A stretch of 64,000 bases of DNA. Source: Balanoglossus misakiensis (Eukaryota; Animalia; Hemichordata). The DNA is taken from NCBI GenBank assembly GCA_040954595.2, contig CM082597.2:5771244-5835243 (forward strand), written 5' to 3'. This document shows, piece by piece, positions 4,621 to 61,064 of this stretch (the stretch's first letter is position 1; each line of letters starts with the position of its first letter). Under the pieces are notes generated by a model. It was not told where the DNA came from. It searched no databases and saw nothing but the letters and a program-made list of their open reading frames with translations. Position numbers and translations under genes: made by a program.

Positions 4621-4621
<1 letters not shown>

Positions 4622-4671: not shown

Positions 4672-4673
<2 letters not shown>

Positions 4674-25395: not shown

Positions 25396-26279
25396 ACGAT
25401 TCACGATATATAAGCATATCAAACCAAAACAAGTTTTCAAAAACCACTTTTCAGAACCAGTTTTTTAACACCAATAAAACAGTAACGACAGCTTTAATAT
25501 TAAAAGCTTTGGAACAACTGCAATATGTAAACAGTGTGTGTTTTTTCTGCATGCGAGAAACGGGTTTCCTTGACTTCTGGCGCTAAAATGGGCGATGACC
25601 GACCGCAGTATTGTTTCCATGGAAATACATAATAACTGAAAAGTTTATATTGAAAATAAATAGAATGCATTGTGTACAGAGATACGAATACGATGTGTCA
25701 GATTGATACCATACTCCCATGGCATATGATCGTACGCGTACCTTTATCGATTGAAAAAACTAAATAACATTGCTCACAAACACAAGAATAGTCAAACTAG
25801 GGTGTTTTTGGACTCCAGACGCTTCTCTGTTCACTACCAACACTTCAAACATGGCGTTGATCACGCTACGTCAAAAGGTATACGCGCTAAAAGTCAGCAG
25901 ATTCCGACTTACCATGCTTATTTGCTGTCTTGCTGTGATGAGGTCAAAAGGAAAGCCTCACACCCGCCACAATTTGACATTTATGTTGAACTAATATATA
26001 GTTACTCCTTTTGTCAATCTTTCATAAAATTTAATGATAGCATCACCCAAACGTGATAAAGACAAGTAAAAAACAATCCAATGTGGTTTGGGGCTGGTAG
26101 GAAATATTCCTTTAGTCACGAGGTTAGCCCTCCCAAATTCAGTTCACACTTTTGATCACATGACAGCTTTTTATCCAATGACAGGAAAGTACGTGGCGGT
26201 GTGATCTTTTATGACCGCAGGAATATATAATCGTCGGCGCCGTCTGTAAGCTTATCGTCGTGATCTCATAAGTGCGAAG

Positions 26280-36632: not shown

Positions 36633-39600
36633 TTAAAGAACTTCCACCATTGCACTGAAAACAGTCAGGTGATTACACAGACACAGGGTAGAATTGAAGT
36701 CGGATTTTGGTGACACCTTCAAATAATCGAACAGAAAAAATACATATTGACACAGCAGTGGGCGTTGCTTTGCAATTGAAACAAGATCAAATACATATTG
36801 GAAACGCGTCCACACTTACATCGCTGCATTTTTTACGTTTACAGTATTTTTCACGTGTCAGCATTAATCGTAAGATGGAGTACCTTCTACATTTTTCGTT
36901 TTGCTGCATATTTGTCCACAGTATCCCCTAAAATCACACTAATTGTCACTTGTCTTTAGTTTCATCGCTTGCAAGTACACGAAGCATATCAATTATTGAA
37001 AAATTGGAAGAAAAGCGTTTACCTTACAACCATCATTCTGCCAGTTAGTCTCATCAAAGTAGCTACATCTGTGTTGTGTAGTGAGAACCTTGATGTGAAC
37101 CCCATGAGCTGTAGAGAAAAAGAATTACAGAACTAACTTCGGTTTCTTCCACGTATTCCATATGTTGATTTTTGAAATTAACAGTAGCATGCACAGCAAA
37201 AAAGATAAACAAACACTATATCGTTTAATCAACGATCATTGTACAATAGTTGTATTAATCATTTAAATATATTACAATCTTACCACTGGTAAGGTCAAAG
37301 ATGATGTAATACAAGCCTGTCCTGGTGATCTTTGCTTCTGGTAGAAATATGGATGCTGTACACCCTGCAAATACCAACTCAGTTACATAATGGAAACCAC
37401 TGTTGCCACCGACGGCGTCAAGTCTTTCCAGTGACATGTATGCTGTAGTAGTCTCGAAGACAGGCGCTGATGCTTCCACGATGATTTGAAATGCAGAGTA
37501 GGCCGATAGCGCCTGCAACGAGAAATTGAGATAAAGTTAACATAATGAAATTTGTGAAGTAAAGGATAACACTGTGTTTGAAATAGCCCCAATGTCATTT
37601 ATACTCGTGTTTGAGTTTTGCCCAATTGATCAAATGGTTATGTTAAAGACTAGATCAGAAAACATGTAATGATCAGTGAATTTCATATATTATGTAAAAG
37701 ATTACCGTTACTGTCAATGCATAGTGAGTGACTCCTTCCCTTTCCACGTATAATCCCCTGACGATGCTTTCATTTATAGGTGTCTGATAATTACCAAGCC
37801 ATACACCGAGATCCTCTGATGCATTTTTCACTGAAAATAAAAATGTTATGTTATAATTCAAACTGATTTCAAAACAAAATTCACAAATGGGTCATTAATC
37901 TAGTTACGCCCTCCAAGATGAAATTGTGAGCGAGTATTTGTATACAAGTATGTTGCTGGGTTTCTAGGTAAAGTTGTTTTAAAGAAGCAATTCGCCTTTT
38001 CCAGTTTAAATGTTGCTTCGTTACGACAATGGCGACACAGGACATGCTCCTTGCCCAAATCAATAACCCCTTAAGACAAGGCGTTCCAAAGAAGCAACTT
38101 CTTTCCCCTGAACATTTCAAGTATTCTTGTGAGTTCCTTAAGAATGTTAGGATGCCACTTTTGGCCTTAATGAAAACCAACCTTTTATCTCATTACCATC
38201 TTCATCTCTGAATTCCAAGGTCAGTATATCGGTAGTAAAGCCATATGTCTCATTTGCCAATCTGTGGGGATTTACACCCAAACGGAAAATCTACAGACAA
38301 AAAAATTACTGTAATTATTCTTGAGCATAATGACACAAGAAGACAACAACAGATATTGTACATAAAGCCAAAGATCATCTTTGAAATATAGTACGGGCTT
38401 ATTTTGTAAAAAAATATACAACGGATGCATTGACCCAACACAAATATCAGCCTATAGTTCATTCCATTAATGATAGCAAGATCACTGGGACGTCACATTA
38501 TAGTTTACTGGCGGCAGAGTCCTAAAGACCAATGGTATACAAATATCAATATACAAGTATAAAGCAGTGTATGATGGAAAATGAAATATTTTTCTTCTGA
38601 TTATAGACGTTGCATACAAACCATCCTGTTCAAGACTGTGTCCTGCGACAATTGTGGAAACATAATATCTGCAGGTGGAATACTAAATCCACTTCCATCT
38701 CCAATCATTATGGTGACGTTGCTCAAGTCCTGCACAAAGTTCTTTTCTAGATGCAGAACAAGAGAAGATGTTCTCGCGATGATTGGTTCATGTCCACAAG
38801 TAGTCTCACTCAGTATAAACATTGATAACTGGTGGAATACTTTTGTTGTTATCTTTGTCAGGTGATTTGCCTGCCCGGGTTTCAGCCTGTCGCTCGGATT
38901 GGCGTCAATTAGGGACTGCATTCTGTCTACCACTTTTTGCATAGCATTCATTGTTTCTGAAATATATAATTATTGACATTTAAAACTTTTTCACTCTGTC
39001 GGTCTGCATCGGCTATTGCATCATACGCCGGTTGATAATAAGTGTTTCTCAATTTTCGTATCCATCAGCTTTTAGGAATTGTCCAATGCTCAATTTTTCT
39101 GAAAATAACATATTTGACGGTCACCATATGCTTACGGATTGTAAGGTTCTACATTTCTGCGTATGATACCATTATCGTATTTACATCATTGGATGATATT
39201 AAATGTGGACGGTGTTGAAATGCTTACTGACGTCTCAGACTTATTATGGTTTTAAATAAAAAAGATCACAATACCTTTTGCAAATAGAATTCTTCCTTCA
39301 AATATGATACTTTTATTTAAGAGGTCAGAGGTTAAAGTGTCCACCTTGTCAATTACACTAATACCCTGGCAAAAGAAAATACAGCTATTTAGTATGTGGC
39401 TTCTGTTGTCACAAAATAGTCATATCCCATAAAGACCTTTAAAGTACGTTTATGTGGATTTCGCTAACTTGTGGCTTTATATACTACAGTGCATTACATC
39501 AATCTCAAATGATTGGCACCTTTCTTACCACATCTGCTGTTCTGAATTCTTCGTCTCTTATCTTGACCAACCTCTCCCGCAGCAGAAGCAACTCATTATC

Positions 39601-42600
39601 TGAATGTTGCAAATGATATGCATTAATTATTGTGTGTTTACTTAAGTTCGAACTTGCAAAGTTCAAGGGTAATAAAATGTGACTACTTCGGAGCCCCCTT
39701 CAGCAGGGTTCTCCTTAGACTAGCCCACTAGTCACTTGGTGATTTTTAAATCTCAATACTTTTTGTGTTTTCGGTGTTTTTTTGTCTTAATAAATAATTG
39801 CAATACTTTTTGCGTGCATGCTTGCCTTGAGCGTGTTTTCAAGCCAAGTAGGTTAACGCGTTCTGCGAATGCCATAAAACTTGTTGAGCCTCGTTTTAAC
39901 CAGGAGCATTATCCTCTGAGAATCCACAATTTAGCATTATCCATTGGTGAAGACAATGCATGAAAGGCTAGGCATTCAACACATATCAAATATGCACTCA
40001 CGAGAAGTCAATATGCCGATTTTTTTCATTATGTTTGTCCAAGAAACAGTATAGAAAACATTTTCCAATTTCCGAAAAACCTCTTTTTTACATAATTACT
40101 GCTGAAAAAGTTAGAAATTTATGAAAATATTCCTTATTCTTTGCCAATTTCTAATGAAAAAAATACATAAAGGTATTCTTAGTCTCTTTCCTGCAGCTGT
40201 ACAGCAGGAAAAATGCATTTTGTCATATTTTGGCTTTAAACTCAAATTAAAATTTATCTGTGAAAAAACTGAGTCTCCTTCAAAGCCACGTACATGACAG
40301 TCCTTTTGATTTTTTTCTAAGGAAATTTTGTCTCCATGTTTATCATGAGTAATATTTCTATTGAAAATTTGCAAGTGTGTGAATTGCTTGTAAAATTTCG
40401 CCAGAAAAAACAATAGCATCAAAAAGTAAATCTGAAACCCAATATTTATTACAAGAATTGTTAGATTAATATCCGTATCACACAAATCCGTTGGATTTCG
40501 TATGAATTTTAGGAAATAAGCACTGCTAATTGACAAATCCATATTTTGCAGCTGAAATACTTGGAAAAGAGTCAGTGGCATGTGAGAGCTTGGAAATTTC
40601 CAAGCACTGACAAGGGTCAGTGGTCGGAAATTTCCAGACACTCAGGGAATGTGAGAGCCTGGAAATTTCCAAGCACTGACAAGGATCAGTGGTCGGAAAT
40701 TTCCAGACACTCAGGGAATGTGAGAGCTTAGAAATTTCCAAGCACTGACAAGGGTCAGTGGTCGGAAATTTCCAGACACTCAGGGAATGTGAGAGCCTGG
40801 AAATTTCCAAGCACTGACAAGGGTCAGTGGTCGGAAATTTCCAGACACTCAGGGAATGTGAGAGCTTAGAAATTTCCAAGCACTGACAAGGGTCAGTGGT
40901 CGGAAATTTCCGGACACTCAGGGAATGTGAGAGCCTGGAAATTTCCAAGCACTGACAAGGGTCAGTGGTCGGAAATTTCCAGACACTCAGGGAATGTGAG
41001 AGCTTAGAAATTTCCAAGCACTGACAAGGGTCAGTGGTCGGAAATTTCCAGACACTCAGGGAATGTGAGAGCTTAGAAATTTCCAAGCACTGACAAGGGT
41101 CAGTGGTCGGAAATTTCCAGACACTCAGGGAATGTGAGAGCTTAGAAATTTCCAAGCACAGACAAGGGTCAGTGGTCGGAAATTTCCAGACACTCAGGGA
41201 ATGTGAGAGCCTTGAAATTTCCAAGCACTGACAGGGTCGTGGTAGTCCCCCGTACAGGTCTGCGTTCTCCCGGCGTTTAATACATGGCTTCCACCACATC
41301 TCTGCAAGGCTCCATGGACAAAACTGATTCGTATGAGATCCGGATCCGGACAGCAGCTTTTCGGCCGAGATTCGATTTTATCGGGGGAATCTTTCCCCCG
41401 TCTACCCACAAATGACTCCAAATAAGATGTAATTAACTTCCGAGCCGCTCGCTTTCTGATTTTCTCTTGTGTTTACCTGTTGAGATCGCCATATTGAATA
41501 CAGTGAGGTTATCTCAATGGGTAAACACAAAAGTTTCAGAAAGCGAGCGGTTCGGATGTTAGAAGAAGTCAATCGTGGAGTCGGTTATAACCGGTTAGTA
41601 GACAGGGAAAGGATATTCTCCCGATAAAATCGAATTTCGGCGAAAAGCTCTGGTACGGATCTGGACCGCAGACGCAACAGGTTTGTCTAAGGAGCCTTAG
41701 CGTCACAATGTTCATGACAGGCTTCGCCTACCAACTCCTCTGAGTTAGCCCATACACTAGTTGTTTATTGGGAATTGGTATTGTTTATCTGACATAATTG
41801 TTCTTTCTACTCTGTATACAAAGTCACAACTTCACAACTACCAAATGCTATTGTTCTTGAATTATGCAGTGTTACCAAATGTCACAGTTCAAACCACTGT
41901 TTATAAAGAAGTATTGGCCATCCCGCCCCTCTCTCTTCATTCCAAACCTATTCCCAAGTGTACGCGGTACATTTGTTGGTGCCGAGACCAGGATGTCGGG
42001 CATGGAGAGAGAGAGAAGAACAGCAGAAGAGGCCACCGCAGTCAAATGACCAATCTCATCCGTAGGGTTGAAGATATAAACACAGGCGCAGTTCCTCAAC
42101 AGATCGTTTTCCTAAAGGCCATAATTTGAAACATGATAGAGAAACTCAAGATTTCCAAGCACTGACCCTGTCAATGCTTGGAAATTGCCAGGCTCTCACA
42201 TTCCCTGAGTGTCTGGAAATTTCCGACCACTGACCCTTGTCAGTGCTTGGAAATTTCCAGGCTCTCACATTCCCTGAGTGTCCGGAAATTTCCGACCATT
42301 GACCCTTGTCAGTGCTTGGAAATTTCCAGGCTCTCACATTCCCTGAGTGTCCGGAAATTTCCGACCACTGACCCTTGTCAGTGCTTGGAAATTTCCAGGC
42401 TCTCACATTCCCTGAGTGTCTGGAAATTTCCGACCACTGACCCTTGTCAGTGCTTGGAAATTTCCAGGCTCTCACATTCCCTGAGTGTCTGGAAATTTCC
42501 GACCATTGACCCTTGTCAGTGCTTGGAAATTTCCAGGCTCTCACATTCCCTGAGTGTCCGGAAATTTCCGACCACTGACCCTTGTCAGTGCTTGGAAATT

Positions 42601-45600
42601 TCCAGGCTCTCACATTCCCTGAGTGTCTGGAAATTTCCGACCACTGACCCTTGTCAGTGCTTGGAAATTTCCAGGCTCTCACATTCCCTGAGTGTCCGGA
42701 AATTTCCGACCACTGACCATTGTCAGTGCTTGGAAATTGCCAGGCTCTCACATTCCCTGAGTGTCTGGAAATTTCCAGACACTGACCCTTCTGGAGTGAC
42801 TAGCAATTTTTGCAAATTGTACTATTAATTGAATTCATAATTTAATTATTAGTTTTTTTCAATGAAATATTCAAATCCATACAACCCAAAGATGGCTCCT
42901 TCATTATTTCTATGGAAATTTCACAGTTTATTCTTTTCTTTCTGCACACTCGCAAACATCTTGAAAATAATCATAGAAAAATATCGAAATATATTGTACT
43001 GTGAACAAAACACTAATTTCCTTGAAAAAAGTTTAAAAAACGGCTACTTTTCGGAAATTGGAAAATGTTTTCTATACTGTTAAGATAAGTTTTATACATA
43101 ATCCCCACTGGTTATGACACAAACACTGTGTTGATCAAAGCCACCCTTTTGTTTAATTTATCTGTTTACCGGAAGCAACACGTTTGATATTAATTAATTC
43201 CATTTCATGTCAAGACAGTCATAAATAATTTCAATGTCATGCATTTCTTTATCTGTGTATACTTAATAAAATCGTTAAAAATAATCTCATACAAAAGTCA
43301 TCGCGAGATCAAACGCTCGAATCATGAAAAAATTGTCCATGAAACATTTGGACATTATAATGCGACTCCCTTCCACGCGGATAAGTGTGTTATCATGCGT
43401 ACACATTTGTCTACAATTATAATTACATACATTGAATGTATGTCTACGGTTCTCGGATGACACACGCAAAGGCAAGCAGACGATTATGCTCTTCAAACAA
43501 CTTGATTATTATTTAGAGTTGCACCCTATAGAACCCAACAGAATGTTCATGTCCACATTAAAGGTACATGAGCTCCAACTGGATAAATAATGAAGTTTCA
43601 TAACCGGAAATGCAACATTTCATTGTTTCTTCCATTTTCTCACGGTGACGGCCATATTCGCTTGCGGCAAAGCTTTATTATTTATCTGGTTAAAACTTGC
43701 ATATGCACTCATATTTAGGGTTTATAATGCCTGTGTATAGTTCACTGCCTTCATCTGCATGGACTAATGGTAGTACAGTTTGAAACAAAAATTATGATAA
43801 TTATCACAATAGTTGCAGCTTATGTGCCTTTAAAGTTTAGACACTGCAACAGTTTAAGGGATTGTTACTTCTGTTCCTACATACTGCGGGACTACCATCT
43901 GCTATCTTGTGGCGGAACAGTACAACTTTTGTTTCAATTATCCATTTACCGAAAGCAGCAAGTAATGGTCCATTATACATTTTGATATTCTTAATGCGAC
44001 TCTCTTGCACGCGGTTAATGCATTTATACCATGCGTATGCATTTGTCGACTTTCCATGTATCATGGCATATGTTGAATGTATACACACCACAGAACTACA
44101 CAGGTGGTCAACTATGCAGGAAAGGCTGATGTCACAACTACTTACTTTTATCCTCGCAAATAACCCATTGAAGGTCACTGCAGTCTTCAGTGAACCAACC
44201 AACATTACCAATTGTGCCACATCTGTATAACACAGTATTGTTTAAGACTTGTACAATGATTACTGTACAGTGTCAATAGTGATCTCTACAGAATGCGGGT
44301 TGGTAATAAGGCCACATTTTGCATTATTTGAATAAAATTATTAATCCTGGCTTAGTTATCCAAAATCGTTCAATATAAAAACTTGACATGGACAGGGTTC
44401 TAATTACATTCTTACATTCACTGTCTTTCATGTTGTAAGGCACATGTTGGAATTGTAATGCAATCAGTCTTAGCTGTAAAGTGTCATGCTAAAATTGTGC
44501 TTTGCAATTCAGACACAGACAAAGATTCAGACGATATGGCAGATTAAGTTGACAAAATACCAGAAATAGTGCAAAAATACTGATTGTAACCTTTAAGATA
44601 AGAAACACGTGTTGTAACAAGCATACACACATTTAACTGCCATCATTTCTCCAATGTAATCTCGCAAGTTCCAACGCCTATGACAGGGACAAAGAGCGAC
44701 TCACACTACACGAATACACGATCCGACTTCTAAAGCCTGGTTGGCCGCAAAAGGCGTGTGTTCCAATATTAAACCGCTGGCTGTCTTGACATGGCCATCT
44801 GCCGCGATGATAGCATCAATCCAGAAGTATCTCCACCATGAAACGTATAAACAGTACTGTCCATATTTCCATTCAGTTGTGTCGGTTAGAAGACGTAACC
44901 CCAACTTCTCACATAGCTGGTATGCATCCACCAAACTCTTCTTGAGTGTGTCAGTTAAGTCGAAAGAAGCTACAAAAGAGATAAAAAACACAATTGGTTT
45001 CCTTTAAAATAAAATTAATGTCTATTTTGATTTGGCGTCTCTAATTAAGCCTTTATTTTTCGTCTGTGAAAGCGGCGAAATACACCGATAATTATCTAGT
45101 ATTCCGAAAACAAACCAAATACATGTGATTGTGTCACCTAATTAAAGATGCAAACTGCAACAACATTTCTTGAGACTTGAACCAACCAGGATAGGTAGAT
45201 CAGTCATAAGGTACACTAAGTGGCAAATATAACTTACTAGCATTTTCACATAAAACTTCCACAAGTTTAGAACTGTGGCAATCTAGATTCTTCCATATGC
45301 CAAATCTGGGAATGAAAACTTCAAGTAAGTATATTTTATCGTCGCACATTAGCGCCAGTCAACCCGTACACCTTTCATAATATATACAGCAAAACTTTTT
45401 CTGCAAATTCTTCTTAACTTTTGACTAAGATCCAAAGACAATGGAGAATAAAGTTTATATGATCTTAAATTGGCAGAAACATAAATAAATCGGAGTTAGA
45501 TTGTTGTACCACATTTTGCAGATAAATTTTGGTGTTTAACGGTAAACGACGAGACAAATCTGGCCATATCTCACAGTTTCCGATTGAAATTTTCCATAAA

Positions 45601-46351
45601 AAGGAGTCATGTGTACGCAATTACAAAAGAAATATAATTGTGATCCGAAGATATTGTCCATTGTAACATCTGCATATCTTTAAATTGTCAATCAACTTTG
45701 TCCCTTACTGATTTTCCATTGTCAGCTTCTGCGCATGACACACAATGATTGCTTCAACTTTACCTGTATTATAATGAGCACAAAAACACACATTTCTTCA
45801 TATTTGAATATAGTTTCAAAACGCTTAACTCACGCTATTGCGAGACACTCTCCATCATTTTCTGAAAAATCTGTACTCCTGGGCTTGTGAGTCAAAATGT
45901 CCCCGTCTCTTGTGACTACGCGTCCGTTGTCAATCAGTCGAGCATCTATCCAGAACATGTCTCCGAGAATGCCTCGTTCTTCTAAATTGTTTATTATAGC
46001 TGCGTGTTTTTCTTCGCTGTCATCTTTAACAAGGCGAAGACCTAATCGCTCACAAAAAGTGTAGGCAGAAAAGTGACCCATCTGCTGGAAAACGTGGTAG
46101 GTGACGCAACCTGGAAATCAAATCGTTATTCTTGTGACAATCATTTTAAACAATCACAAAATATAAGATTTGTGATGAGCTCCTGTTTTGGGGAACTTCA
46201 AAGTTTCTGAAGATGCAAAACCCACAATTAGTGTCTTACCTGCTTGCTGCAGTAATGTCACCGACAGCATGGCGAATGTAGCGAGGAGCAATAACTTCGA
46301 AGGTATTTCACGACAATCTCGTAACGTTTTACAGCTTCTCAGGCGAGCCAT
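36633..46351 (-). CDS. CTL-CTL-GAIN/GPS protein (PKD1-like ectodomain, no TM), copy L, 13 exons, 642 aa
   Basis: Exons 46351-46240, 46110-45834, 45305-45238, 44969-44705, 44222-44146, 39599-39529, 39365-39275, 38956-38622, 38290-38182, 37830-37706, 37512-37284, 37108-37023 and 36716-36633, all GT-AG and in phase. CTL motifs CERLGLRL/FWID/WxxxDC; GPS CSYFDETNWQNDGC...TLCLCNHLTVF. Confidence 0.85.
40570..41235 (+). repeat. 69-bp tandem array (~9.5 units), left
   Basis: Unit starts at 40582, 40651, 40720 ... 41203. Confidence 0.95.
42148..42790 (-). repeat. 69-bp tandem array (~9 units), inverted relative to the left array
   Basis: Reverse complement of the same unit. Confidence 0.95.
43562..43829. 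mobile_element. TTAA/AGG MITE (Kolobok-like), family C
   Basis: TTAA|AGGTACATGAGCTCCAACT ... AGTTGCAGCTTATGTGCCT|TTAA. Confidence 0.7.
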
Positions 46352-46694
46352 GGTTGCGAGTTGTGCGGCTAATCTGTGATTATCTTAAATATAAGCTACT
46401 TGATAAATTATGCGTGTTTTGCAAAGATGTGTAACTACTGTGGAGAGAGAGAGAGAAAGCAAAGACTACATGGTGACGCTATGCCGGGTACTTACATTTA
46501 TTAGTTGGCAGACACACCCAGAGATTGTTTGGAACAGGACCAATCACCTGGAGAATATAAGTTTTGTTTAATTTGTCCATATACCGGAAGCAAATATTTT
46601 AATATTAATTCATTCCTTTTCATCTTACGACAATCATAAATAAGACGAATGCCGACTGCATTTTCTAGGAAGACTACATACATAGTAACATACA

Positions 46695-46912
46695 TGTATG
46701 TATGTATGCATGCATGCATACATGTATGTATGTATGTATGTATGTATGTATGTATGTATGTATGTATGTATGTATGTATGTATGTATGTATGTATGTATG
46801 TATGTATGTATGTATGTATGTATGTATGTATGTATGTATGTATGTATGTATGTATGTATGTATGTATGTATGTATGTATGTATGTATGTATGTATGTATG
46901 TATGTATGTATG
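46695..46912. repeat. (TATG)n microsatellite in the spacer of the inverted duplication
   Basis: ~220-bp nearly pure run. Confidence 0.97.
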
Positions 46913-47346
46913 ATACCCTCTCTTAGCGAAAAGTTTGAAATTTCGAGAGTTGCATCTTGCGATGAATCTTGTATGAGATTAGTTTTCCTCATTTCATCGA
47001 GTAAACACAGGTTAACAATGCGTGACATTAAAACTAATTTATTTATGATTGTCATAAGATGAAAAGGAATGAATTAATATTAAAATATTTGCTTCCGGTA
47101 TATGGACAAATTAAACAAAACTTATATTAATCATCAAGGTGGCTTCTCCAGGTGATTGGTCCTGTTCCAAACAATCTCTGGGTGTGTCTGCCAACTAATA
47201 AATGTAAGTACCCGGCATAGCGTCACCATGTAGTCTTTGCTTTCTCTCTCTCTCTCCACAGTAGTTACACATCTTTGCAAAACACGCATAATTTATCAAG
47301 TAGCTTATATTAAGATAATCACAGATTAGCCGCACAACTCGCAACC

Positions 47347-50300
47347 ATGGCTCGCCTGAGAAGCTGTAAAATGTTGCGAGATTGTCGTGAAATACCTTTG
47401 AAGTTAACGCTCATCGCTACATTCGTCATGCTGTCGGTGACATTACTGCAGCAAGCAGGTAAGACACTAATTTTAGGTTTTGCATCTTCAGAAAGTTTGA
47501 AGTTCCCCAAAACAGGAGCTCATCACAAATCTTATATTTTGTGATTGTTTAAAATGATTGTCATAAGAATAACGATTTGATTTCCAGGTTGCGTCACCTA
47601 CCACGTTTTCGGGCCGATGGATCACCCTTCTGCCTATAATTTTTGTGAGCGATTAGGTCTTCGTCTTGTTAAAGATGACAGCGAAGAAAAACACACAGCT
47701 ATAGTAAACAATTTACAAGAACGAGGCATTCTAGGAGACATATTCTGGATAGATGGTCGACTGATTGACAACGAACGCGCAGTCACAAGAGACGGGGAAA
47801 TTTTGACTCACGAGCCCAGGGGTACAGATTTTTCAGAAAATGATGGAGATTGTCTCGCACTGGCGTGAGTTAAGAGTTTTGAAACTATATTCAAATATGA
47901 AGAAGTGTGTGTTTTTGTGCTCATTATAATACGGCTAAACTTGAAGCAATCATTGTGTGTCATGCGCAGAAGCTGACAATGGAAAATCGGTAAGGGACAA
48001 AGTTGATTGCCCATGTAAAGATATGCAGATGTTACAATGGACAATATCTTCGGATCACAATTATATCTCTTTTGTAATTGCGTACACATGACTCCTTTTT
48101 ATGGAAAATTTCAATCGGAAACTGTGAAATATGGCCAGATTTGTCTCGTCGTTTACCGTTAAACACCAAACTTTCTCTGCAAAATGTGGTACAACAATCT
48201 AACTCCGATTTATTTATGTTTCTGCCAATTTAAGATCATATAAACTTTATTCTCCATTGTCTTTGGATCTTAGTCAAAAGTTAAGAAGAATTTGCAGAAA
48301 AAGTTTTGCTGTATATATTATGAAAGGTGTACGGGTTGACTGGCGTTAATGTGCGACGATAAAATATATACTTACTTGAAGTTTTAATTCCCAGATTTGG
48401 CACATGGAAGAATCAATATTGCGGCAGTACTAAAATAGTGGAAGTTTTATGTGAAAATGCTAGTAAGTTATATTTGCCACTTAGTGTACCTTATGACTGA
48501 TCTACCTATCCTGATTGGATGAAGTCTCAAGAAATGTTGTTGCAGTTTGCATCTTTAATTAGGTGACACAATCACCTCATTTAATTGTCAAAACATGTAT
48601 TTGCTTTGTTTTCAGAATACTAGATAATTATCGGTGTATTTCGCCGTTTTCCTTAAATACAGACGTAAAATAAAAGCTTAATTAGAGACCCCAAATCAAA
48701 ATAGACATTAATTTTATTTTGAAGGAAACAAATTGTGTTTTTATCTCTTTTGTAGCTTCTTTCGACTTAACTAACACACTCAAGAAGAGTATGGTGGATG
48801 CATACCAGCTATGTGAGAAGTTTGGGTTACGTCTTCTAACCGACACAACTGAATGGAAATATGGACAGTACTGTTTATACGTTTCATGGTGGAGAAACTT
48901 CTGGATTGATGCTATCATCACAGCAGATGGCAATTTCAAGACAGCCAGTGGTTTAATATTGGAACACACGCCTTTTGCGGCCAACCAGGCGTTAGAAGTC
49001 GGATCGTGTATTTATTCACTGTGAGTCGCTCTTTGTTCACGCTATTTTGCGCGTTGCTAGAACAGTATATGTTTTTTTTCCATTTCTTTCATGTCTTTAA
49101 CTAGCTCTCATAGGCGTTGGAACTTGCGAGATTACATTGGAGATACAATAGCAGTTAAATGTGTGTATGCTTGTTGCAACACGTGTTTCTTATCTTAAAG
49201 GTTACAATCAGTATTTTTGCACTATTTCTGGTATTTATCAACTTAATCTGCCATATCGTCTGAATTGCAAAGCACAATTTGAGAATGATACTTTACAGCT
49301 AACGCTGATTGCATTACAATTCCAACATGTGCCTTACAACATGAAAGACAGTGGATGTAAGAAAGTAATCGGAACCCTGCGCATGTCAAGATTGAGTTTT
49401 TATATTGACGATTTTGGAAAACTAAGCCAGGATTAATAATTGTATTCAAATAATGCAAAATGTGGCCTTATGACCAACCCGCATTCTGTAGGGATCACTA
49501 TTGACACTGTACAGTAATCATTGTACAAGTCTTAAACAATACTTTGTTATACAGATGTGGCACAAATGGTAATGTTAGTTGGTTCACTGAAGACTGCAGT
49601 GAAGGGCAAAGGTTTATTTGCGAGGATAAAAGTAAGTAGTTGTGACATCAGCCTTTCCTGCATATATTTTCATGATTCGAGCGTTTGATCTCGCGATGAC
49701 TTTTGTATGAGATTATTTTTAACGATTTCATTAAGTATACACAGATAAAGAAATGCATGACATTGCAATTATTTATGACTGTCTTGACATGAAATGGAAT
49801 AAATCAATATTAAACGTGTTGCTTCCGGTAAACAGATACATTAAACTAAAGATGGCTTAGATCAACACAGTGTTTGTGTCATAACCAGTGGGGATAATGT
49901 ATAAAACATATATTGGACAAAATTAATGAAATAAATCGGCATATTGACTTCTCTTTAGTGCATATTTGATATGTGTTGAATGCGTAGCCTTTCATGCATT
50001 GTCTTCACCAATGGATAATGCTAAAGTGTGGATTCTCAGAGGAGAACCTAGACTTGCTCCAAGTCTATGGGCTTCATTATGTGTAGGGAACGCTACCCGA
50101 AACCACAAGCTTAGTCCCAAATTCGAAACTCACCTCACTACCAAAAACCTGCTCAAGGCAAGCATGCACGCAAAAAGTCTTGCAATTATTTATTAAGACA
50201 AAAAACCACCGAAAAACACAAAAAGTATTGAGATTTAAAAATCACCACGTGACTAGTGGGCTAGTCTAAGGAGAACCCTGCTGGAGGGGGCTCCGAAGTA

Positions 50301-53300
50301 GTCACATTTTATTACCCTTGAACTTTGCAAGTTCGAACTTAAATAAACACACAATAATTAATGCATATCATTTGCAACATTCAGATGATGACTTACTTCT
50401 GCTGCGGGAGAGCTTGGTCAAGATAAGTGACGATGAATTCAGAACAGCAGATGTGGTAAGAAAGGTGCCAATCATTTGAGATTGATGTAATGCACTGTAG
50501 TGTATAAAGCCACAAGTTAGCGAAATCCACTTAAACGTACTTTAAAGGTCTTTATCGGATATGACTATTTTGTGACAACAGAAGCCACATACTAAATAGC
50601 TGTATTTTCTTTTGCCAGGGTATTAGTGTAATTGACAAGATAGACACTTTAACATCTGATCTGTCAAATAAAAGTGTCATATTTGAAGGAAGAATTCTAT
50701 TTGCAAAAGGTATTGTGATCTTTTTTTATGAATCAATGAATCTGTGACGTCAATATGCATTTCAAAACCGTCCATATTTAATATCATCCAATGATGTAAA
50801 TATGATAATGGTATCATACGCAGAAATGTAGAACCTTACAATCCTTAAGCGTATCGAATATGTTTCAACTATACTTCGTTTGTTTCAATAAATCATGCAG
50901 ATAATTGGTGACCGTCAAATATGTTATTTTCAGAAAAATTGAGCATTGGACAATTCCTAAAAGCTGATGGATACGAAAAATGAGAAACACTTATTATCAA
51001 CCGGCGTATGATGCAATAGCCGATGCAGACCGACAGAGTGAGAAAGTTTTAAATGTCAATAATTGTATATTTCAGAAACACTGAATGTCATGCAAAAGGT
51101 GATAGACAGAATGCAGTCCATATTTGACGCCAATCCGAGCGAGAAGCTGAATCCTGGGCAGGCAAATCACCTGACAAAGATAACAACGAAAGTATTCGAC
51201 CAGTTATCGATGTTTATACTGAACGAGACTAATTATGGACATGGACCAATCATTGTGAACACTTCTTCTCTTGTGCTGCATCTGGAAAAGAACTTTGTGC
51301 AGAACTTGTGCGACACCAATGTAATGATTGGAGATGGAAGTGGATTCAATATTCCACCAGCAGACAGTATGTTTCCACAATTGTCGTGGGACACAGTCTT
51401 GAACAGAATGGTTTGTATAATCTGAAGAAAAATATGACTTTCATTTTCCATCACACCCTGCTCTATACTTGTATATTGATATTTGTATACTATTGGTCGT
51501 TAGGACTTTGCCGTCAGTAAACTATAATGTGACGTCCCAGTGATCTTGCTATCACTAATGGAAAGAACTATAGGCTGATATTTGTGTTGAGTCAATGCAT
51601 CCGTTGCAATTGTTTTTTTTTATAAATAAGCCCATACTATGTTTTAATGATCATCTTTGGTTTTATGTACAAAATCTGTTGCGTCATCTTGTGTCATTAT
51701 GCTCAAGAATAATTACAGTATTTTTTTTCCTTTAGATTTTCCGATTCGGTGGGAACCCCCACAGATTGGCAAATAGGACACATGGCTTCACTACCGATAT
51801 ACTGACCTTGGAATTCAGAGATGAAGATGGTAATGAGATTAAAGGTTGGTTTTCATTAAGGCCAAAAGTGGCATCCTAACATTCGTATGGAACTCACAAC
51901 AATACTTGAAATGTTCGGGGGAAAGAAGTTGCCTCTCTGGAACGCCTTGTCTTAAGGGGTTATTGATTTGGGCAAGGAGCATGTCCTGTGTCACCATTGT
52001 CGTAACGAAGCACCATTTAAACTGGAAAAGGCGAATTCCTTCTTTAAAACAACTTTACCTAGAAACTAAGCAACATATTTGTATAAACATACTCGCTAGC
52101 GTTTTCATCTTGGAGGGCGTAACTAGATTAATGACCAATTTGTGAATTTACTTTTGAAATCAGTTTGAGTTATAACATGTTTCTTTTCAGTGCAAAATGC
52201 TTCCAAGGATCTTGGCGTATGGCTTGGTAATTATCAGACACCTATAAATGAAAGCATCGTCAGGGGATTATACGTGGAAAGTGAAGGAGTCACTAACTAT
52301 GCATTGACAGTAACGGTAATCTTCACATACTATATGAAGTCTACTGATCATTGCATGTTTTCTGATCTAGTCTTTTACATAACCATTTGATCAACGGCGC
52401 AAAACTCAAACATGAGTAATAATGACATTGGTGCTATTTCAAACACAGTGTTATATTTTACCTCAAAAATATAATGTGAAATTTATCTTGCGTCAATATA
52501 TCATTATTTACGTTGCAGGCGCTATCGGCCTACTCTGCATTTCAAATCACCATGGAAGCATCAGCGCCTGTCTTCGAGACTACTACAGCATACATGTCAC
52601 TGGAAAGACTTGACGCCGTCGGTGGCTACAGTGATTTCCATTATGCAACTGAGTTGGTATTTGCAGGGTGTACAGCATCCATATTTCTACCAGAAGCAAA
52701 GATCACCAGGACGGGCTTGTATTACATATTCTTTGACCTTACCAGTGGTAAGATTGTGGTATTTACATAATTAATACAACTATTGCACAATGATCGTTGA
52801 TTGAAACACATAGTTGTATTTTCTTTTCTTTTTTTGCTGTTTATGCTTCTTTTTAATTTCAAAAACGAACATGCATATGTAGAAAGTTATACTACGATCT
52901 TGCGGTTTTAATATAGCGTTCCCAATTTTCTAATTTTACTATCGAGCTTAGATTGGTCAATCTAAATATGCTTACTGATGTTTATCTAAATATGCTTACT
53001 GATTGTAATACATTTACTTCTTGTCGATGCCCAATTGTGACTGCATGTTGCAATTTGATCAAGTGATATATTAAACGGGCGCTCAACCCGTTTAATCGGC
53101 CTCCATACAAAGGTGTACACAAAACACGTGGTATGCGTTCTGTATTTCTTTTGCCTTTAGCAATATAATACAAAAGTTTATGAATTTCATTTTCTGGGTG
53201 CACACTACCTTACAGACACTCCAGTTGGTTTTATATGGAATATGTTGATGTAACCGCAGTTCTGTATATCTTTTTTTCCCTACAGCCCGTGGGGTTGACA

Positions 53301-53838
53301 TCAAGGTTCTCACTACTCAACACAGATGTTCCTACTTTGATGAGACTAACTGGCAAAATGATGGTTGTAAGGTATACAAATTAATTTCTTCTAAATTTTG
53401 CAAAAGTTGAAATGCTCCATGTACTTGCGATTGATGAAATTTAAGACAAGTGGCAATCAGTGTGATTTCAGTGGGTTCTGTGGATAAATATGCAACAAAA
53501 ACTTAAAATGCAGGAAAAAGGTACTGCACCTTACAATTAATACTGACACATGGAAAATACCGTAAACGTACAAAATGTACTGATTCACGTGAGGGCGCTT
53601 TTCCTTGTTTAAATTAACGCTGGGATGTGAACCAGGTGTTTGATCTTGTTTCACTTGCAAAGAAACGCCCAATGCTTTGTCATCACGTTTTTTTCTGCTT
53701 GATATCTTGCAGGTGTCACCAAAATCCGACTTCAATTCTACCCTGTGTCTGTGTAATCACCTGACCGTTTTCAGTGCAATGGTGGAAGTTGTTGAATCTG
53801 ATGGACGATTCCACGATGAGCGCAGGGTCGTCCATTAG
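47347..53838 (+). CDS. CTL-CTL-GAIN/GPS protein (no TM), copy R, 13 exons, 656 aa
   Basis: Exons 47347-47458, 47588-47864, 48395-48462, 48756-49020, 49555-49631, 50385-50455, 50619-50709, 51076-51410, 51736-51844, 52191-52315, 52519-52747, 53286-53371 and 53713-53838 (1971 nt, in phase). AATAAA at 53926. Confidence 0.87.
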
Positions 53839-54194
53839 ATCTCGAGAAGTGACAAAATAAGCTTATGGGACAAGTTCTGAACTAATAATGTACCATTGAC
53901 ATAATATGCTGTCACTTGCCATTGTAATAAACCATAATTTCACTTGTCATCAGGGTGGAGTTATATTCTGTAACTTCAAAACAAATTGTATGTGTTGACC
54001 TTGGATTACTCTGGATTATTCTGGTTGATATTAAAGCGTACACTTAAAGTGCAGTATGTATGTATGGCGCCTTTTCCCATCGAATCAAATTACGCTTCAT
54101 GTGATGATGCTCTGATGGATGGAAGGGAGGGAGGGATGGAGGGACTCCCTATAGGGAGGGAGGGAGGGAGGGAATGAGGGAGGAATGGAGGGAG

Positions 54195-54344: not shown

Positions 54345-55380
54345 ATCGATTTTTTGGAAAATGGATATTTGAGGAATAAACTATGCCGTATTTGGGTAGA
54401 TTTTGCAGATACTTTCTCACTATATGTGCCGTTTTGAATTCCTGGACATATTTATCTTCACCGACATCTCCCGCAGCGGAAGTTAGTCATCACATGAACA
54501 TTGCAAATGTGAAATGTAGATGACATGACAGGCGATAAAATCTTACAATTGGATTTTTAGAGTTGCAATTTTTTGAATAAGAAATGTTGCCATAAATAAT
54601 TTAAAGCCACTCTTTCAGGATCTACCTCAGAACCCTAACCGATGGGTTAGCCTCTGGGAATCCGTATTGTAGCATTATTGTTGACGTGGACAATGCACTA
54701 AAGACAAGTTATTGAATATATATCACATGTACACTCAAAGGAAATGTATAAGTGCGGGACAATTTGCCGAATTTTCATTGATTGGGGTCAGACGCAAAAT
54801 TTGTCACCCATGGATAGCCTGAGAAGACGTAAATTGTTACAATGTTGTCGTGAAATCCCTTTGACGTTAACGATCATCGCCACATTCGTCGAAAGCATTT
54901 AAAAATGTTGCATTCCTCACGGAGTGGGAGACGATCGATTTTGGGAATGTTGATATTGAGGGGGGGGGGGGTGTATGTCGTATTTGGGTAAATTTTGCAG
55001 ATACTTTTGTATACCAGATGTGCTGAATTCATACTCGCATATGTCACAACATATCCCGCAGCAGCAGAAGTAAGTCAATATCTGAATAATGCAAATGTTA
55101 AATGCAGATGACATGAGAGGCGGTAGAATATTACAAATTGTATTTTTAGAACTACAGAATTTTAGAATAAAGATGTGACCATAAATAAATTAAAGCCACT
55201 CTCTTAAGATCTAATCCAGGGACCCTTACCGGAGGATTAACCTCTGGGAAACCGCATTGTAGCATTATCATTGGTGTGCTCAATGCATGAAAGGCAAGGC
55301 ATTAAATATATATCACATGTACACACAAGATAACTGTATATTTGCAGGACAATAAGCCGAAATTCCATTAGTTGGGTGAA
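54345..55380 (+). repeat. Diverged tandem duplication (~590-bp period) upstream of copy 3
   Basis: CGATTTT..GG / GTATTTGGGTA.ATTTTGCAGATACTT / TAAAGCCACTCT / CCTCTGGGAA recur from 54345 and from 54935. Confidence 0.75.
54810..54902 (+). pseudogene. Truncated relic of exon 1 of a further CTL-GAIN copy
   Basis: MDSLRRRKLLQCCREIPLTLTIIATFV-ESI* aligns with MARLRSCKMLRDCREIPLKLTLIATFV; the donor is lost. Confidence 0.75.
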
Positions 55381-56015: not shown

Positions 56016-59000
56016 ATGGCTCGCCTGAGAAGGTGTAAAATGTTGCGAGATTGTCGTGAAATACCCTTAAAGTTAACGCTCATCGCTACATTCGTCATTC
56101 TGTCGGTGACATTAGTGCAGCAAGCAGGTAAGACATTTTAATTCCTCAAAACCAAGCCTAGGTAAGAAATATCAGCAAAGCGGCAGATCTACACCGCCTA
56201 GATGGAAAGAAAGGCTGTCAAGCAGCGAAATCGAGATAATTTAGCTGCGCAAGGGGTTTGTCAAGCAGCAAAACCTAGATAGTCTAGCTGCAATTCCCGG
56301 GGTTTTTCCCGAAATTCCGTTGGATTTCAAAATGGCGATCAGGAGTATAAACACTCGCTAACTGTCAGTTTTTCCTGATATTAGGTGTTTAAAAGCAAAA
56401 TTTCGGAATAAAATGTAGCGCGTTCTGGGACTAGTGAATTTAACAATAGTTGTGCCAAACGATTTTGTTAAACTCTCAATACTTTTTTGAAGATAAAAAA
56501 AATCGGAGTACGGACAAGTCTAGCTATGCATGGCTGCAGGACCCTTGTGTCTTAATGCCGGCGATACCGCCGAGGAGTTTTTTTTATCTTCTACAAAAGT
56601 ATTGAGAGTTTCACAAAATCGTTTGGCACAAGTATTTTCAAACGCATTAGTCCCTGAACGCGCTACATGTTATTCGAAAATGTTGCTTTCAAACAAGTAA
56701 ATATCGGGATAAACTTACAGTTACAGGGCTGTGTACCTTACGGTGATGCCTTGGGGGCTCACCGGCCGTAAGACACAAGGGCCCTGAAGCCATGCATAGC
56801 TAGAGACGTGTCCGTGCTCCGAGTTTTTTTTTCTATCTTCTTCAAAAGTATTGAGAGTTAAACAAAATCGTTTGGCACAACTATTTTCAAACGCATTATT
56901 CCCTGAACGTGCTACATGTTATTCCAAAATGTTGCGTTTCATTCATTCATTCATTCATGTAAATATCGGGATAAACTTACAGTTACAGGGCTGTGTACCT
57001 TACGGTGATGCCTTGGGTGCTCACCGGCCGTAAGACACAAGGGCCCTGCAGCCATGCATAGCTAGAGACGTGCCCGTGCTCCGAGTTTTTTTATCTTCTA
57101 CAAAAGTATTGAGAGTTTCACAAAATCGTTTGGCACTACTATATGTAAATTCACTAGTCCCTGAACGCGCTACATGTTATTCCAACATGTTGCTTTTCAT
57201 TCATTCATTCATTCATTCATTCATTCATTCATTCATTCATTCAAGTAAATATCGGGATAAACTTACAGTTACAGGGATGTGTATCCTACGGTGATGCCTT
57301 GGGGGGCTCGCCGGCCGTAAGACACAAGGGCCCTGAAGCCTTGCATAGCTAGACATGTCCGTACTCCGAGTTTTTTTATCTTCTACAAAAGTATTGAGAG
57401 TTTCACAAAATCGTTTGGCACTACTTTATGTAAATTCACTAGTCCCTGAATGCGCTACATGTTATTCCAACATGTTGCTTTTCATTCATTCATTCATTCA
57501 TTCATTCATTCATTCATTCATTCATTCATTCATTCATTCATTCATTCATTCAAGTAAATATCGGGATAAACTTACAGTTACAGGGATGTGTACCTTACGG
57601 TGATACCTTGGGTGCTCACCGGCCGTAAGACACAAGGGCCCTGCAGCCATGCATAGCTAGAGACGTGTCCGTGCTCCGAGTTTTTTTCTATCTTCTTCAA
57701 AAGTATTGAGAGTTCAACAAAATCGTTTGGCACAACTATTTTCAAACGCATTAGTCCCTGAACACGCTACATGTTATTCCAAAATGTTGCTTTTCATTCA
57801 TTCATTCATTCATTCATTCATTCATTCATTCATTCATTCATTCATTCATTCATTCATTCATTCAAGTAAATATCGGGATAAACTTACAGTTACAGGGATG
57901 TGTACCTTACGGTGATACCTTGGGTGCTCACCGGCCGTAAGACACAAGGGCCCTGCAGCCATGCATAGCTAGAGACGTGTCCGTGCTCCGAGTTTTTTTC
58001 TATCTTCTTCAAAAGTATTGAGAGTTCAACAAAATCGTTTGGCACAACTATTTTCAAACGCATTAGTCCCTGAACACGCTACATGTTATTCCAAAATGTT
58101 GCTTTTCATTCATTCATTCATTCATTCATTCATTCATTCATTCATTCATTCATTCATTCATTCATTCATTCATTCATGTAGATATCGGGATAAACTTACA
58201 GTTACAGGGATGTGTACCTTACGGTGATGCCTTGGGTGCTCACCGGCCGTAAGACACAAGGGCCCTGCAGCCATGCATAGCTAGAGACGTGTCCGTGCTC
58301 CGAGTTTTTTTCTATCTTCTTCAAAAGTATTGAGAGTTCAACAAAATCGTTTGGCACAACTATTTTCAAATTCATCAGTCCCTGAACGCGCTACGTGTTA
58401 TTCCAACATGTTGCTTTTCATTCATTCATTCATTCATTCATTCATTCATTCATTCATTCATTCATTCATTCATTCATTCATTCATTCATTCATTCATTCA
58501 TTCAAGTAAATATCGGGATAAACTTACAGTTACAGGGATGTGTACCTTACGGTGATGCCTTGGGGGGCTCGCCGGCCGTAAGACACAAGGGCCCTGAAGC
58601 CATGCATAGCTAGACGTGTCCGTACTCCGAGTTTTTTTTATCTTCTACAAAAGTATTGAGAGTTTCACAAAATCGTTTGGCACAACTATTTTTAAATTCA
58701 CTAGTCCCAGAACGCGCTTCATGTTATTCCATAATGTTGCTTTTAAACACATAAATATCAGGAAAAACTTGCAGTTAGCGAGTGTTTGTACTCCTGATCG
58801 CCATTTTGAAATCCAACGCAGTTTCGGGAAAAACCCAGGGAATTGCAGCTATACTATCTAGGTTTTGCTGCCTGACAGCCTTTCTTTCCATCTAGACGGT
58901 GTAGATTCGCAGCTTTGCTGATATTTCTTACCTAGGCCTGAAAACAGGAGCACATGAATCTTATTATTGTGTAATTGTTTAAACTGACTGTCATAAGAAT

Positions 59001-61064
59001 AACGATTTTATTTCCAGGTTGCGTCACCTACCACGTTTTCGAGCTTATGGATCACCCTTCTGCCTACATTTTTTGTGAGCGATTAGGTCTTCGTCTTGTT
59101 AAAGATGACAGCGAAGAAAAACACGCAGCTATAGTAAACAGTTTAGAAGAACGAGGCATTCTCGGAGACATGTTCTGGATAGATGCTCGACTGATTGACA
59201 ACGGACGCGTAGTCACAAGAGACGGGGACATTTTGACTCACAAGCCCAGGAGAACAGATTTTTCAGAGAATAATGGAGAGTGTATCATACTGTTGTGAGT
59301 TAAGCGTTTTGAAACTATATTCAAATATGAAGAAATGTGTGATTTTTGTGCTCATTATAATACAACTAAACTTGAAGCAATCATTCTGTGTCATGCGCAA
59401 AAGCTCAGAATGGAAAATCAGTAGGGACAGAGTTTATTGACAATTTAAAGACATGCAGATGTTACAATAGACAATATATTCGGATCACAATTTGATATCT
59501 TTTGTAATTGCGTACACATGTCTCCTTTTGTGGAAAAATTCAATTCGGTAACTGTAAGATATGTCCAGATTTATCTCATCGTTTACCAAACTTTCACAAC
59601 AAAATGTGTTACAACAATCTAACTCTGATTTATTTATGTTTCTGCCAATTTTAGATCATGTAGACTTTATTCTCCATTGTCTTTGGATCTTAGTCAACCG
59701 TTAAGGAGAAATTGCAGAAAACGTTTTGTAGTATACATTATAATATACCTCATGCTAATACTGTGTTGTGATTGGCCATAATCCGTCACGTGATAGGAAA
59801 ATATAATCGACGTTGGATCCCTAGGGAAAATTTCAATCGGAAACTGTGAGATATGTCCATTTTACCGTTGAACAAAAACCTGTCTCTGCAAAATGTGGTA
59901 CAACAATCTAACAAATTTATCTCATGTTTCTGACAATTTAAGATCACGTGGATTGAATTCTCCATTGTTGCTTGATGGTTGATCGGCGTTAATGAGTGGA
60001 GATAACATATAATTACTTGACGTTTCAATTACCAGGAATGGCGCATGGAGAAATATTGATTGTAACACGAACGGCACCTTCGGCCCTCTATTGGAGGTTC
60101 TGTGTGAAAATGCGAGTAAGTTCTAGTTCAATTAATTCTTTTACACTTAGTTCATACTTTTCCTTATGACTGATCGACCTATCTTTGTTTGTTCAAGAGG
60201 AAAGACACGTTTTTAATTTATGTATTTTTTAACATTTGCCTCTTTATGTATATGAAACAATCACCTTCTTAAATTGATACAACATGTATTTGGTTTATTT
60301 ACGAAATATATGTAGATACTTATCGGTGTTTTTCGCCATTTTTCTTATTATACAGACGACAAATACAATGTAAACGCTTAATTAGAGACACTAAATCATT
60401 ATAGACATTTATTTTAAAGCCTCTATAGCTGCCAAATTTCACATTATTTCCGCAGTAAAATAATTCAAATATATTCCCTATCCTCTAAAATCCTCACCAT
60501 TATGCCGTATTACCTGCAATTGCATCAGTTTGTCATCCCTTGGCGACGCATACCACGATAGCTGCGTACTGTTTGTATGGAGGCTCTTTAAATCGGTGCG
60601 GCACCTGTTTAATACATGTTCAAAATTGCAACATGCAGTCACAATCGGGCATCGATAAGGTGTTCATGTATACCTATCAGCTAGTAGGCTTATTTAGATG
60701 GATCAATTTAGGTTGGAAAATAAAATCATGAAAATAATGCAAAAAGTGGCAGCTTTAGAGGATTTTAAGGGAAATAAATTACGTTTATCTCATTTGCAGC
60801 TTCTTTCGACTTAACTACGACTCACACGAGGAGCGCGATGGATGCATACCAGGTATGTGAAAAGTTAGGGTTACGTCTTCTAACCGACACAACCGTATGG
60901 GCTTACGACCAGTACTGTTACGGCGTTTCAATGTTGAATGAGGTATGGATTGATGCCAACATCACGGCATATGGCAATGTCAAGACAGCCAGTGGTTTAA
61001 TATTGGAACACACGCCTTTTGCGGCCAACCAGGCTATTGAAGTCGGATCGTGCATTTACGCAGA
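56016..61064 (+). CDS. Third paralog of the CTL-CTL-(GAIN) family, exons 1-4; the rest is not in the window
   Basis: Exons 56016-56127, 59018-59294, 60036-60115 and 60800-61064, in phase and homologous to copy R exons 1-4. Confidence 0.82.
56153..58940. mobile_element. 2.8-kb non-autonomous TIR element with an internal ~260-330-bp tandem array, in intron 1 of copy 3
   Basis: Long imperfect TIRs CA(A/G)GCCTAGGTAAGAAATATCAGCAAAGC...; 5-bp TSD AAAAC at 56148-52 and 58941-45; empty site CCCCAAAACAGGAG in copy R (~47505). Confidence 0.9.
60418..60764. mobile_element. TTAA-flanked MITE in intron 3 of copy 3
   Basis: TTAA|AGCCTCTATAGCTGCCA ... TGGCAGCTTTAGAGGATT|TTAA; absent at the paralogous site (~48720). 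Confidence 0.75.

Follow-up and report, generated by a model that had tools for sequence, protein, structure and literature searches.

The 64,000-nt stretch of the Balanoglossus misakiensis genome analysed here (the window; assembly GCA_040954595.2, contig CM082597.2, positions 5,771,244 to 5,835,243 of the forward strand) contains two paralogous genes, termed L (36633..46351, minus strand) and R (47347..53838, plus strand), whose predicted products consist of a signal-like helix, two C-type-lectin-like (CTL) domains and a GAIN domain with a GPS motif, and which stop shortly after the GPS cut site HL↓T. It is likely that no membrane half follows the GAIN domain in either gene. Judged from sequence, their products are probably secreted receptor ectodomains without a membrane part, which would serve fast-evolving recognition via the lectin-like domains. 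This reading is supported by the intact frames, the constraint on the GAIN domain, the absence of a membrane helix after GAIN in all six relatives found in Ptychodera flava, a fold match to PKD1L2 and REJ-like proteins, and the unrelated genes that lie behind L. In the scenario proposed here, a PKD1L2/REJ-like receptor gene would have lost everything downstream of GAIN. By prediction, the remaining GAIN domain would fold as a complete unit and cleave its own chain at HL↓T, while the tail of 10 or 24 residues would stay buried as the last GAIN strand rather than being released as an agonist. The proteins would then be secreted, and the variable CTL pair would do the recognising, with cell-surface or mucus ligands as the likeliest targets and possibly also polycystin channels, by analogy with the soluble polycystin-1 (PC-1) fragment. 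An initial annotation of this DNA had described functional CTL-CTL-GAIN genes without recognisable membrane exons, and this part is backed by the selection tests and by the P. flava relatives that end at the cut site; overall, its interpretation is partly supported.

Gene models and protein architecture

Both copies were rebuilt from their splice sites on the window. Copy R comprises 13 exons (47347-47458, 47588-47864, 48395-48462, 48756-49020, 49555-49631, 50385-50455, 50619-50709, 51076-51410, 51736-51844, 52191-52315, 52519-52747, 53286-53371 and 53713-53838) and encodes 656 residues, namely a signal-like helix, CTL1, CTL2, a GAIN domain of putative PKD1 type and 24 residues after HL↓T, so that the C-terminus reads TVFSAMVEVVESDGRFHDERRVVH, followed by the stop codon TAG. 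Copy L is arranged head-to-head with R, has 13 exons as well (46351-46240, 46110-45834, 45305-45238, 44969-44705, 44222-44146, 39599-39529, 39365-39275, 38956-38622, 38290-38182, 37830-37706, 37512-37284, 37108-37023 and 36716-36633) and encodes 642 residues, 10 of which follow HL↓T (TVFSAMVEVL, with the stop codon TAA at 36635-36633). The two start codons are 995 nt apart. All introns of both copies are of the GT-AG type, each copy forms one open frame and exons 1-12 have identical lengths in L and R, which confirms the initial description of two intact 13-exon paralogs that end 10 and 24 residues past the cut site.

Exon 1 of R (47347..47458, plus strand) encodes a basic N-region and the sole strongly hydrophobic stretch of the protein, which is read as a signal peptide and possibly represents an uncleaved type II anchor. 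In 19-residue windows the hydropathy of R peaks at residue 16 with a value of 2.02, while the runner-up reaches 1.39. R and L each have this one hydrophobic stretch near the N-terminus and end without an anchor-like tail, a pattern that would fit either a signal peptide or a signal anchor. The reading frames of L and R contain no membrane helix after the GPS and no PLAT, channel or seven-transmembrane (7TM) domain. Exons 2-5 of R (47588..49631, plus strand; 46110-44146 in L) encode the two CTL domains, and the GAIN domain follows directly on CTL2 with no REJ module between them. Exons 6-12 of R (50385..53371, plus strand; 39599-37023 in L) cover GAIN subdomains A and B together with a strand-rich insert, which is read as the extra β-sandwich of the PKD1 type. 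The last exon holds the end of the GPS motif, the Thr codon of the cut site, the stalk strand and the stop codon (53713..53838 on the plus strand with the Thr codon at 53764-53766 and TAG in R; 36633..36716 on the minus strand with the Thr codon at 36665-36663 and TAA in L). Pfam GPS matches this exon in both copies (E 0.0012 and 0.00037), slightly under the gathering score because the exon carries the motif only in part, and the other eight of the ten exon pieces scanned remained unmatched by Pfam.

Relatives in Ptychodera flava

An exhaustive HMMER search with exon 11 returned five matches at E up to 0.001, four of them P. flava proteins (P0021, P0022, P0024 and P0025), while the fifth, a Miscanthus repeat protein (P0023), was dropped as spurious and unrelated. 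A profile search over proteins of 624-2000 residues, in which 7990 candidates were scored, added two more relatives, P0026 and P0027, which are isoforms X2 and X1 encoded on one scaffold. Exon 8 by itself, used in a word search, turned up no relative among 31 candidates. The six P. flava relatives thus collected are located on five scaffolds, and none of them has a membrane helix after the GAIN domain (five were inspected, and the C-terminus of P0027 is the same as that of P0026). R is 45-47% identical to P0025 and P0026, the latter being closest to R with 41% identity over both CTLs and 47% over the GAIN domain (364 residues).

Four of the five P. flava loci end 1-6 residues past the cut site. 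P0025 is composed of a signal, a CTL, a Ser/Thr spacer and GAIN, and ends with HLT; P0026/P0027 carry a signal, two CTLs, HYR repeats and GAIN, and end with HLK; P0022 ends with QLT. In these three loci a single residue follows the site, whereas P0021, whose Pfam GPS match is above the gathering score, ends with HLTTSVAL, six residues past it. P0024 lacks the last GPS exon and appears to run into an intron. Among these P. flava proteins, the uncharacterised RefSeq entries XP_070568692.1/XP_070568693.1 and XP_070558929.1 resemble L and R in that they have a signal-like N-terminus, one or more CTLs and a GAIN domain of the same family, and end at the GPS. They differ from L and R by their HYR repeats or Ser/Thr-rich spacer and by having only one residue (Lys or Thr) past the site, where L and R keep the stalk strand. 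Relics of HYR repeats were sought in the long intron 5 of L and were not found there.

As far as can be judged from these sequences, the P. flava relatives support a receptor-less family. If the annotation of the three loci without a stalk is right, a released Stachel cannot be the common function, and since two of these loci also lack the catalytic His or Thr, the initial suggestion of a Stachel-like peptide acting in trans is not borne out as a shared function. In trees of the GAIN domain, from which P0027 (both trees) and P0021 (second tree) were excluded, bootstrap support for joining P0026 to L and R reached only 88-90% and no outgroup was included, so that the trees do not decide between loss of the stalk in P. 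flava and loss of the stop in L and R.

Lectin-like domains, GAIN type and cleavage site

Exon 2 of R, which encodes CTL1, shares 45% identity with the part of P0026 that Pfam recognises as Lectin_C (CTL1 of P0026, E 8e-10), while CTL2 is assigned only by its similarity to CTL1 and its CTL-like cysteine spacing. The sugar-binding motifs EPN, QPD and WND were not found in R, L or the P. flava homologs, and R has only EPR. The glycan binding originally attributed to these proteins is therefore not borne out: classical calcium-dependent sugar binding by the CTLs is not supported by their sequences, and the ligand may be a protein or an unusual glycan.

Fold comparisons, in which both sides were predicted models and the homologs P0025 and P0026 stood in for the spliced protein of the window, indicate the type of the GAIN domain. 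[quoted passage not shown] According to these models the GAIN domain of L and R is of the PKD1/PKD1L2 type and not of the aGPCR type; the earlier assignment as GAIN/GPS with HL↓T stands, its type is narrowed to PKD1, and the aGPCR option falls away (0.76-0.81 vs at most 0.56). Likewise, PF16489, the aGPCR-type GAIN family, matched neither the scanned exons nor the homologs, and Pfam REJ found no match in P0025, P0026 or P0027, a module that is reported to be missing also from PKD1L3 (PMC1934368). PKD1-type GAIN domains are described as having an extra β-sandwich and a longer last strand, features that fit the strand-rich insert of exons 10-11, seen in a mediocre GAIN model, and the nine conserved stalk residues (PMC11697300). 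A single-sequence fold of P0025 had a predicted local confidence (pLDDT) of 32.9, too low to use. A sequence search of solved structures matched only the GPS stretch of ADGRG6, and P0025 gave nothing significant against solved structures by sequence.

An aromatic residue at S10.49, a Gly before the S12 Cys and the sequence H-X-T have been listed as features of self-cleavage (PMC13062082). By eye all three are present in L and R, namely an aromatic residue two places past the first GPS cysteine, a Gly preceding the second cysteine, and H-X-T. Catalytic residues have been lost among the homologs, the His in P0022 and the Thr in P0026.

Selection and divergence between the two copies

The GAIN domain is under purifying selection. 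Between L and R its ratio of non-synonymous to synonymous divergence (dN/dS) is 0.46, with a bootstrap range of 0.33-0.74 for the uncorrected ratio (pN/pS) and p=0.001 in a Fisher test; a GAIN ratio near 1, which had been named at the outset as an outcome that would speak against these genes, is thus not seen. In subdomain B non-synonymous divergence is 0.042, compared with 0.116 in its introns. The coding sequences contain no indels in 1926 nt, where ~23 would be predicted from the intron rate (~12 per kb), and neither copy has a premature stop. When the GAIN amino-acid changes were polarised with P0026, nine fell on R and 14 on L, with 24 left unpolarised; since the changes are spread over both lineages, neither copy looks dead. 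With open frames, constrained GAIN domains and no indels, the genes do not look like simple pseudogenes, in agreement with the initial annotation.

Constraint ends within the last exon. Up to the residues MVEV only 1 of 78 nt differs between L and R, followed by 21 of 96 nt (p=2e-5), and this jump indicates that constraint stops where the predicted last GAIN strand, the stalk, ends. The nine stalk residues themselves are conserved, with one synonymous change in 27 nt (p=0.04 vs flank). The CTL exons behave differently in that their non-synonymous divergence (0.086) exceeds the divergence of introns 1-4 (0.039; p=8e-5), a comparison that gene conversion could bias. This pattern recalls the lectin domains of the sea-urchin proteins SpREJ1-3, for which positive selection is reported (PMC1934368).

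Search for membrane exons and the gene ends

A membrane part encoded farther downstream was sought in 260 stop-to-stop frames on the strands of the two genes. Once shorter and low-complexity frames were removed, this set comprised 69 frames behind R (minimum 38 residues) and 191 behind L (minimum 42 residues). Within the window none of the 260 frames matched PLAT, PKD_channel or 7tm_2, in a scan that is insensitive to divergent exons, so that the failure to recognise membrane exons in the initial annotation is upheld. Seven of the frames match other families, among them VWD, FkbM and Ly6 genes located downstream of L and in the same orientation. Hydrophobic frames number 21 downstream of L, compared with 24 on the control strand, and 12 on the own strand downstream of R, compared with one on the other; three of these 12 represent a GTT microsatellite and one is exon 1 of a third paralog (copy 3). 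L and R point in opposite directions, and one downstream membrane half therefore cannot serve both.

The shared 3′ flank of the genes (53909..54088, plus strand, homologous to 36210-36019 of L) contains the AATAAA of R at 53926 as well as a hydrophobic frame (R ~53985, L ~36125), which was rejected as a transmembrane exon, since the acceptor-like AG of R is absent in L and the frame has an early stop in R. The AATAAA noted initially ~90 nt past the stop of R is indeed present at a distance of 88 nt, but a randomly chosen 100-nt stretch of the window contains one in about 8% of cases and L has AATAAC at the matching place, which rules it out as strong evidence for the gene end. Between the stop of R and the ATG of the next paralog (56016), where ~2 kb of repeats and relics had been described, there are 2.2 kb in which the GTT microsatellite is accompanied by remnants of exons 1 and 6.

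Alternative explanations

Several observations weigh against the view that L and R are complete secreted ectodomains. The gene models are known from genomic DNA alone, and the exon-level Pfam scan is insensitive, having matched only two of ten true exons. The poly(A) signal of R is not conserved in L. An alignment-based model of the GAIN domain is mediocre (pLDDT 57.7), its best PDB match being the GAIN domain of BAI3 (E 6.9e-4, TM-score 0.26). The CTL pair has a dN/dS of 1.55, which, judged by synonymous sites alone, does not significantly exceed 1 (p=0.23). The ends of the P. flava proteins come from automatic annotation, and three of the six (P0021, P0022 and P0024) look like fragments with no signal at the N-terminus. 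The profile search, limited to 2000 residues and 7990 scored candidates, may have overlooked full-length relatives. Furthermore, a weak candidate phase-0 donor, ATG/GTGGAA, follows HLTVFSAM in R (53779..53787, plus strand, GT at 53782) and has the same sequence in L (GT at 36647), a position close to which aGPCR genes frequently have an intron. The donor's score of 3.6 is inside the range of real donors (1.0-8.2, leave-pair-out), and the identity of L and R falls 10 nt past it. If this donor were used, L and R would be ordinary PKD1-like receptors, in which the GPS exon is spliced to distant membrane exons, and the P. flava ends would result from donor read-through; indeed, T-stop and K-stop are expected from read-through of a phase-2 donor (AC/GTAA, AA/GTAA), P0024 provides a case of apparent intron read-through within the family, and the hydrophobic frames after R are biased to its own strand. 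We nevertheless regard this explanation as unlikely, since none of the 260 downstream frames holds a PLAT, PKD_channel or 7tm_2 match, another paralog follows R after 2.2 kb in the same orientation, unrelated same-strand genes follow L, and both copies are constrained yet oppositely oriented. Four of the 12 hydrophobic frames after R are accounted for by the microsatellite and copy 3, and L shows no excess over its control strand (21 vs 24). In addition, the Thr codon of L and R contains no GT, so that the hidden introns would have to differ between the two species.

Other explanations accept the gene ends and assign the proteins a different role or status. They could be exchangeable ectodomains or decoys, in which the short tail, absent in P. 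flava, is a placeholder after self-cleavage and the emptied groove docks on the exposed stalk of a cleaved polycystin membrane half that another gene encodes. Such docking would explain why the whole GAIN domain is under purifying selection though nothing is left to tether, and three P. flava loci that end exactly one residue past the cut resemble a natural N-terminal fragment (NTF). The last strand is described as keeping the NTF attached to the C-terminal fragment (CTF) (PMC9672506), and a truncated aGPCR isoform was reported to bind the full receptor via its NTF (10.1101/2023.01.11.521585). By contrast, the gene for the partner membrane half is hypothetical, the nine stalk residues of L and R are conserved as expected for a permanently buried strand, and a detached PC-1 NTF was reported to fail to traffic without the CTF (PMC4810088). 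Docking of this kind appears distinctly unlikely, and it is quite unlikely that acorn worms encode polycystin-1-like NTFs as separate secreted genes whose products snap onto the stalk of a cleaved membrane half and thereby form a channel-receptor with exchangeable ectodomains. Alternatively, the N-terminal hydrophobic stretch could be an uncleaved type II anchor, yielding a surface-tethered lectin-GAIN protein with its C-terminus outside, from which cleavage would shed only the short tail. A basic N-region of 19 residues precedes the stretch in R and L, and Gln occupies position -3 before the likely cleavage points, a residue that signal peptidase disfavours there. The hydrophobic core, however, is only ~15 residues long, the signal peptide of P0025 looks classical and in P0026 the core ends with a Lys, which makes such an anchor very unlikely. 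Finally, L and R might be recent partial duplicates of a receptor gene in decay, or two haplotypes assembled head-to-head, in a region that is full of duplications and relics and in which the 5′ introns differ by only 2-5%. The GAIN dN/dS of 0.46, the lack of indels and premature stops, the 12-18% divergence of the 3′ introns, the changes on both lineages and the relatives at ~45% identity that end at the same place render this extremely improbable.

Relation to known systems

Putatively secreted ectodomains of this kind have partial counterparts in several known systems. PKD1L2, PKD1L3 and sea-urchin SpREJ1-3 share with L and R one or more N-terminal C-type lectin domains and a PKD1-type GAIN/GPS with HL↓T, but PLAT, a channel domain, a full REJ module and a membrane helix behind the GPS are all absent from L and R. 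SpREJ1, 8 and 9 are reported to have one helix, and SpREJ10 of Strongylocentrotus purpuratus, a PKD1-family protein known from a full-length cDNA, is described as having no predicted membrane segment, as in L and R; with 2122 residues it has neither GPS nor lectin domains, whereas L and R keep GAIN/GPS and end there (PMC1934368). Comparable ectodomain-only products arise from premature stops or intron retention in the soluble N-terminal isoforms of human aGPCRs and in Drosophila Cirl-1TM. Soluble N-termini are listed for 51.5% of human aGPCR genes (Table 2 in PMC11039983), and a one-helix Cirl isoform is reported to bind the full receptor (10.1101/2023.01.11.521585). These isoforms are, however, splice forms of genes that also make the full receptor, whereas L and R seem to be dedicated, receptor-free genes with a PKD1-type GAIN.

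The closest model for the action of a lectin-GAIN ectodomain is the N-terminal fragment of PC-1 as a soluble ligand, given the report that the PC-1/PC-2 channel is activated by soluble pieces of PC-1 that contain the CTL (Ha et al., 2020; PMC7728438). L and R would work like the PC-1 NTF and descend from the PKD1 family, but they have no membrane helices, PLAT or REJ, and they are not aGPCRs. The PC-1 fragment differs in being released from a receptor by cleavage, and the recombinant pieces found active were without GAIN; channel binding by L and R would be an analogy only. According to a survey of 2025, aGPCRs and PKD1-like proteins are the only known carriers of GAIN domains, and a PKD1 GAIN structure had yet to be solved by experiment (PMC11697300). 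GAIN domains are reported also in non-GPCR genes outside animals (PMC12716839). No description of a dedicated GAIN gene family without transmembrane segments was found in the literature searched, the scope of which excluded most subscription papers and supplements. If the proposed reading is true, a fragment-only gene family with a selected GAIN domain, whose stalk strand is kept in L and R or absent in the P. flava annotation, would mean that the PKD1-type GAIN has a job beyond tethering. The family would bear on the open question of the role of the released PC-1 NTF, and its small soluble products would be suited to structure determination and to assays of cleavage, of folding in the absence of a stalk and of binding in trans.

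Genomic neighbourhood

Together L and R form an imperfect palindrome of 17 kb (36543-53886), centred on an (ATGT)n microsatellite at 46694-46912. Intron divergence between the copies is 2-5% near the centre, in the 5′ introns, and rises to 12-18% at the 3′ ends, a gradient along the palindrome that suggests gene conversion between the arms. Intron 5 measures 4546 nt in L and 753 nt in R, and the L intron contains at 40572-42790 two inverted arrays of a 69-bp unit with ~9-10 copies each, which are 96% complementary and 925 nt apart and resemble a foldback insertion. The segment that separates R from copy 3 holds duplicated remnants of exons 1 and 6 and of intron 5 (54382..55376). Copy 3 itself (56016..61064, plus strand) has intact exons 1-4 (56016-56127, 59018-59294, 60036-60115 and 60800-61064), while exon 5 and those that follow were not found in the window. 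Its exon 3 is 12 nt longer, in frame, its intron 1 is enlarged by a 312-bp tandem repeat, and its identity to L and R is 89-96% in exons 1-2 and only ~82% in exon 4.

Farther from the palindrome, a single open frame on the plus strand (33628-34875) encodes a sulfotransferase-like protein of 415 residues, the best relatives of which are found in P. flava (62%), Saccoglossus and Glandiceps, as expected for DNA of an enteropneust hemichordate, and this family is expanded in P. flava and Saccoglossus. A second single open frame on the plus strand (26250-27404, 384 residues) starts with an N-terminal hydrophobic stretch and by eye resembles a type II glycosyltransferase. The minus strand carries several Ly6/uPAR-like exons (10126-19432), with weak matches to Pfam UPAR_LY6_2 at 14027-14185 and 19238-19432, as well as exons in 1-5822 that match VWD (4-345 and 519-1028) and an FkbM methyltransferase (5388-5822). 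The segments 10126-10983 and 13868-14694 form an inverted duplicate pair with 91% identity, and an element of ~350 bp that matches its own reverse complement, similar to a miniature inverted-repeat transposable element, is dispersed over 7332-31430 (at ~7332, 12522, 19458, 19977 and 31073).

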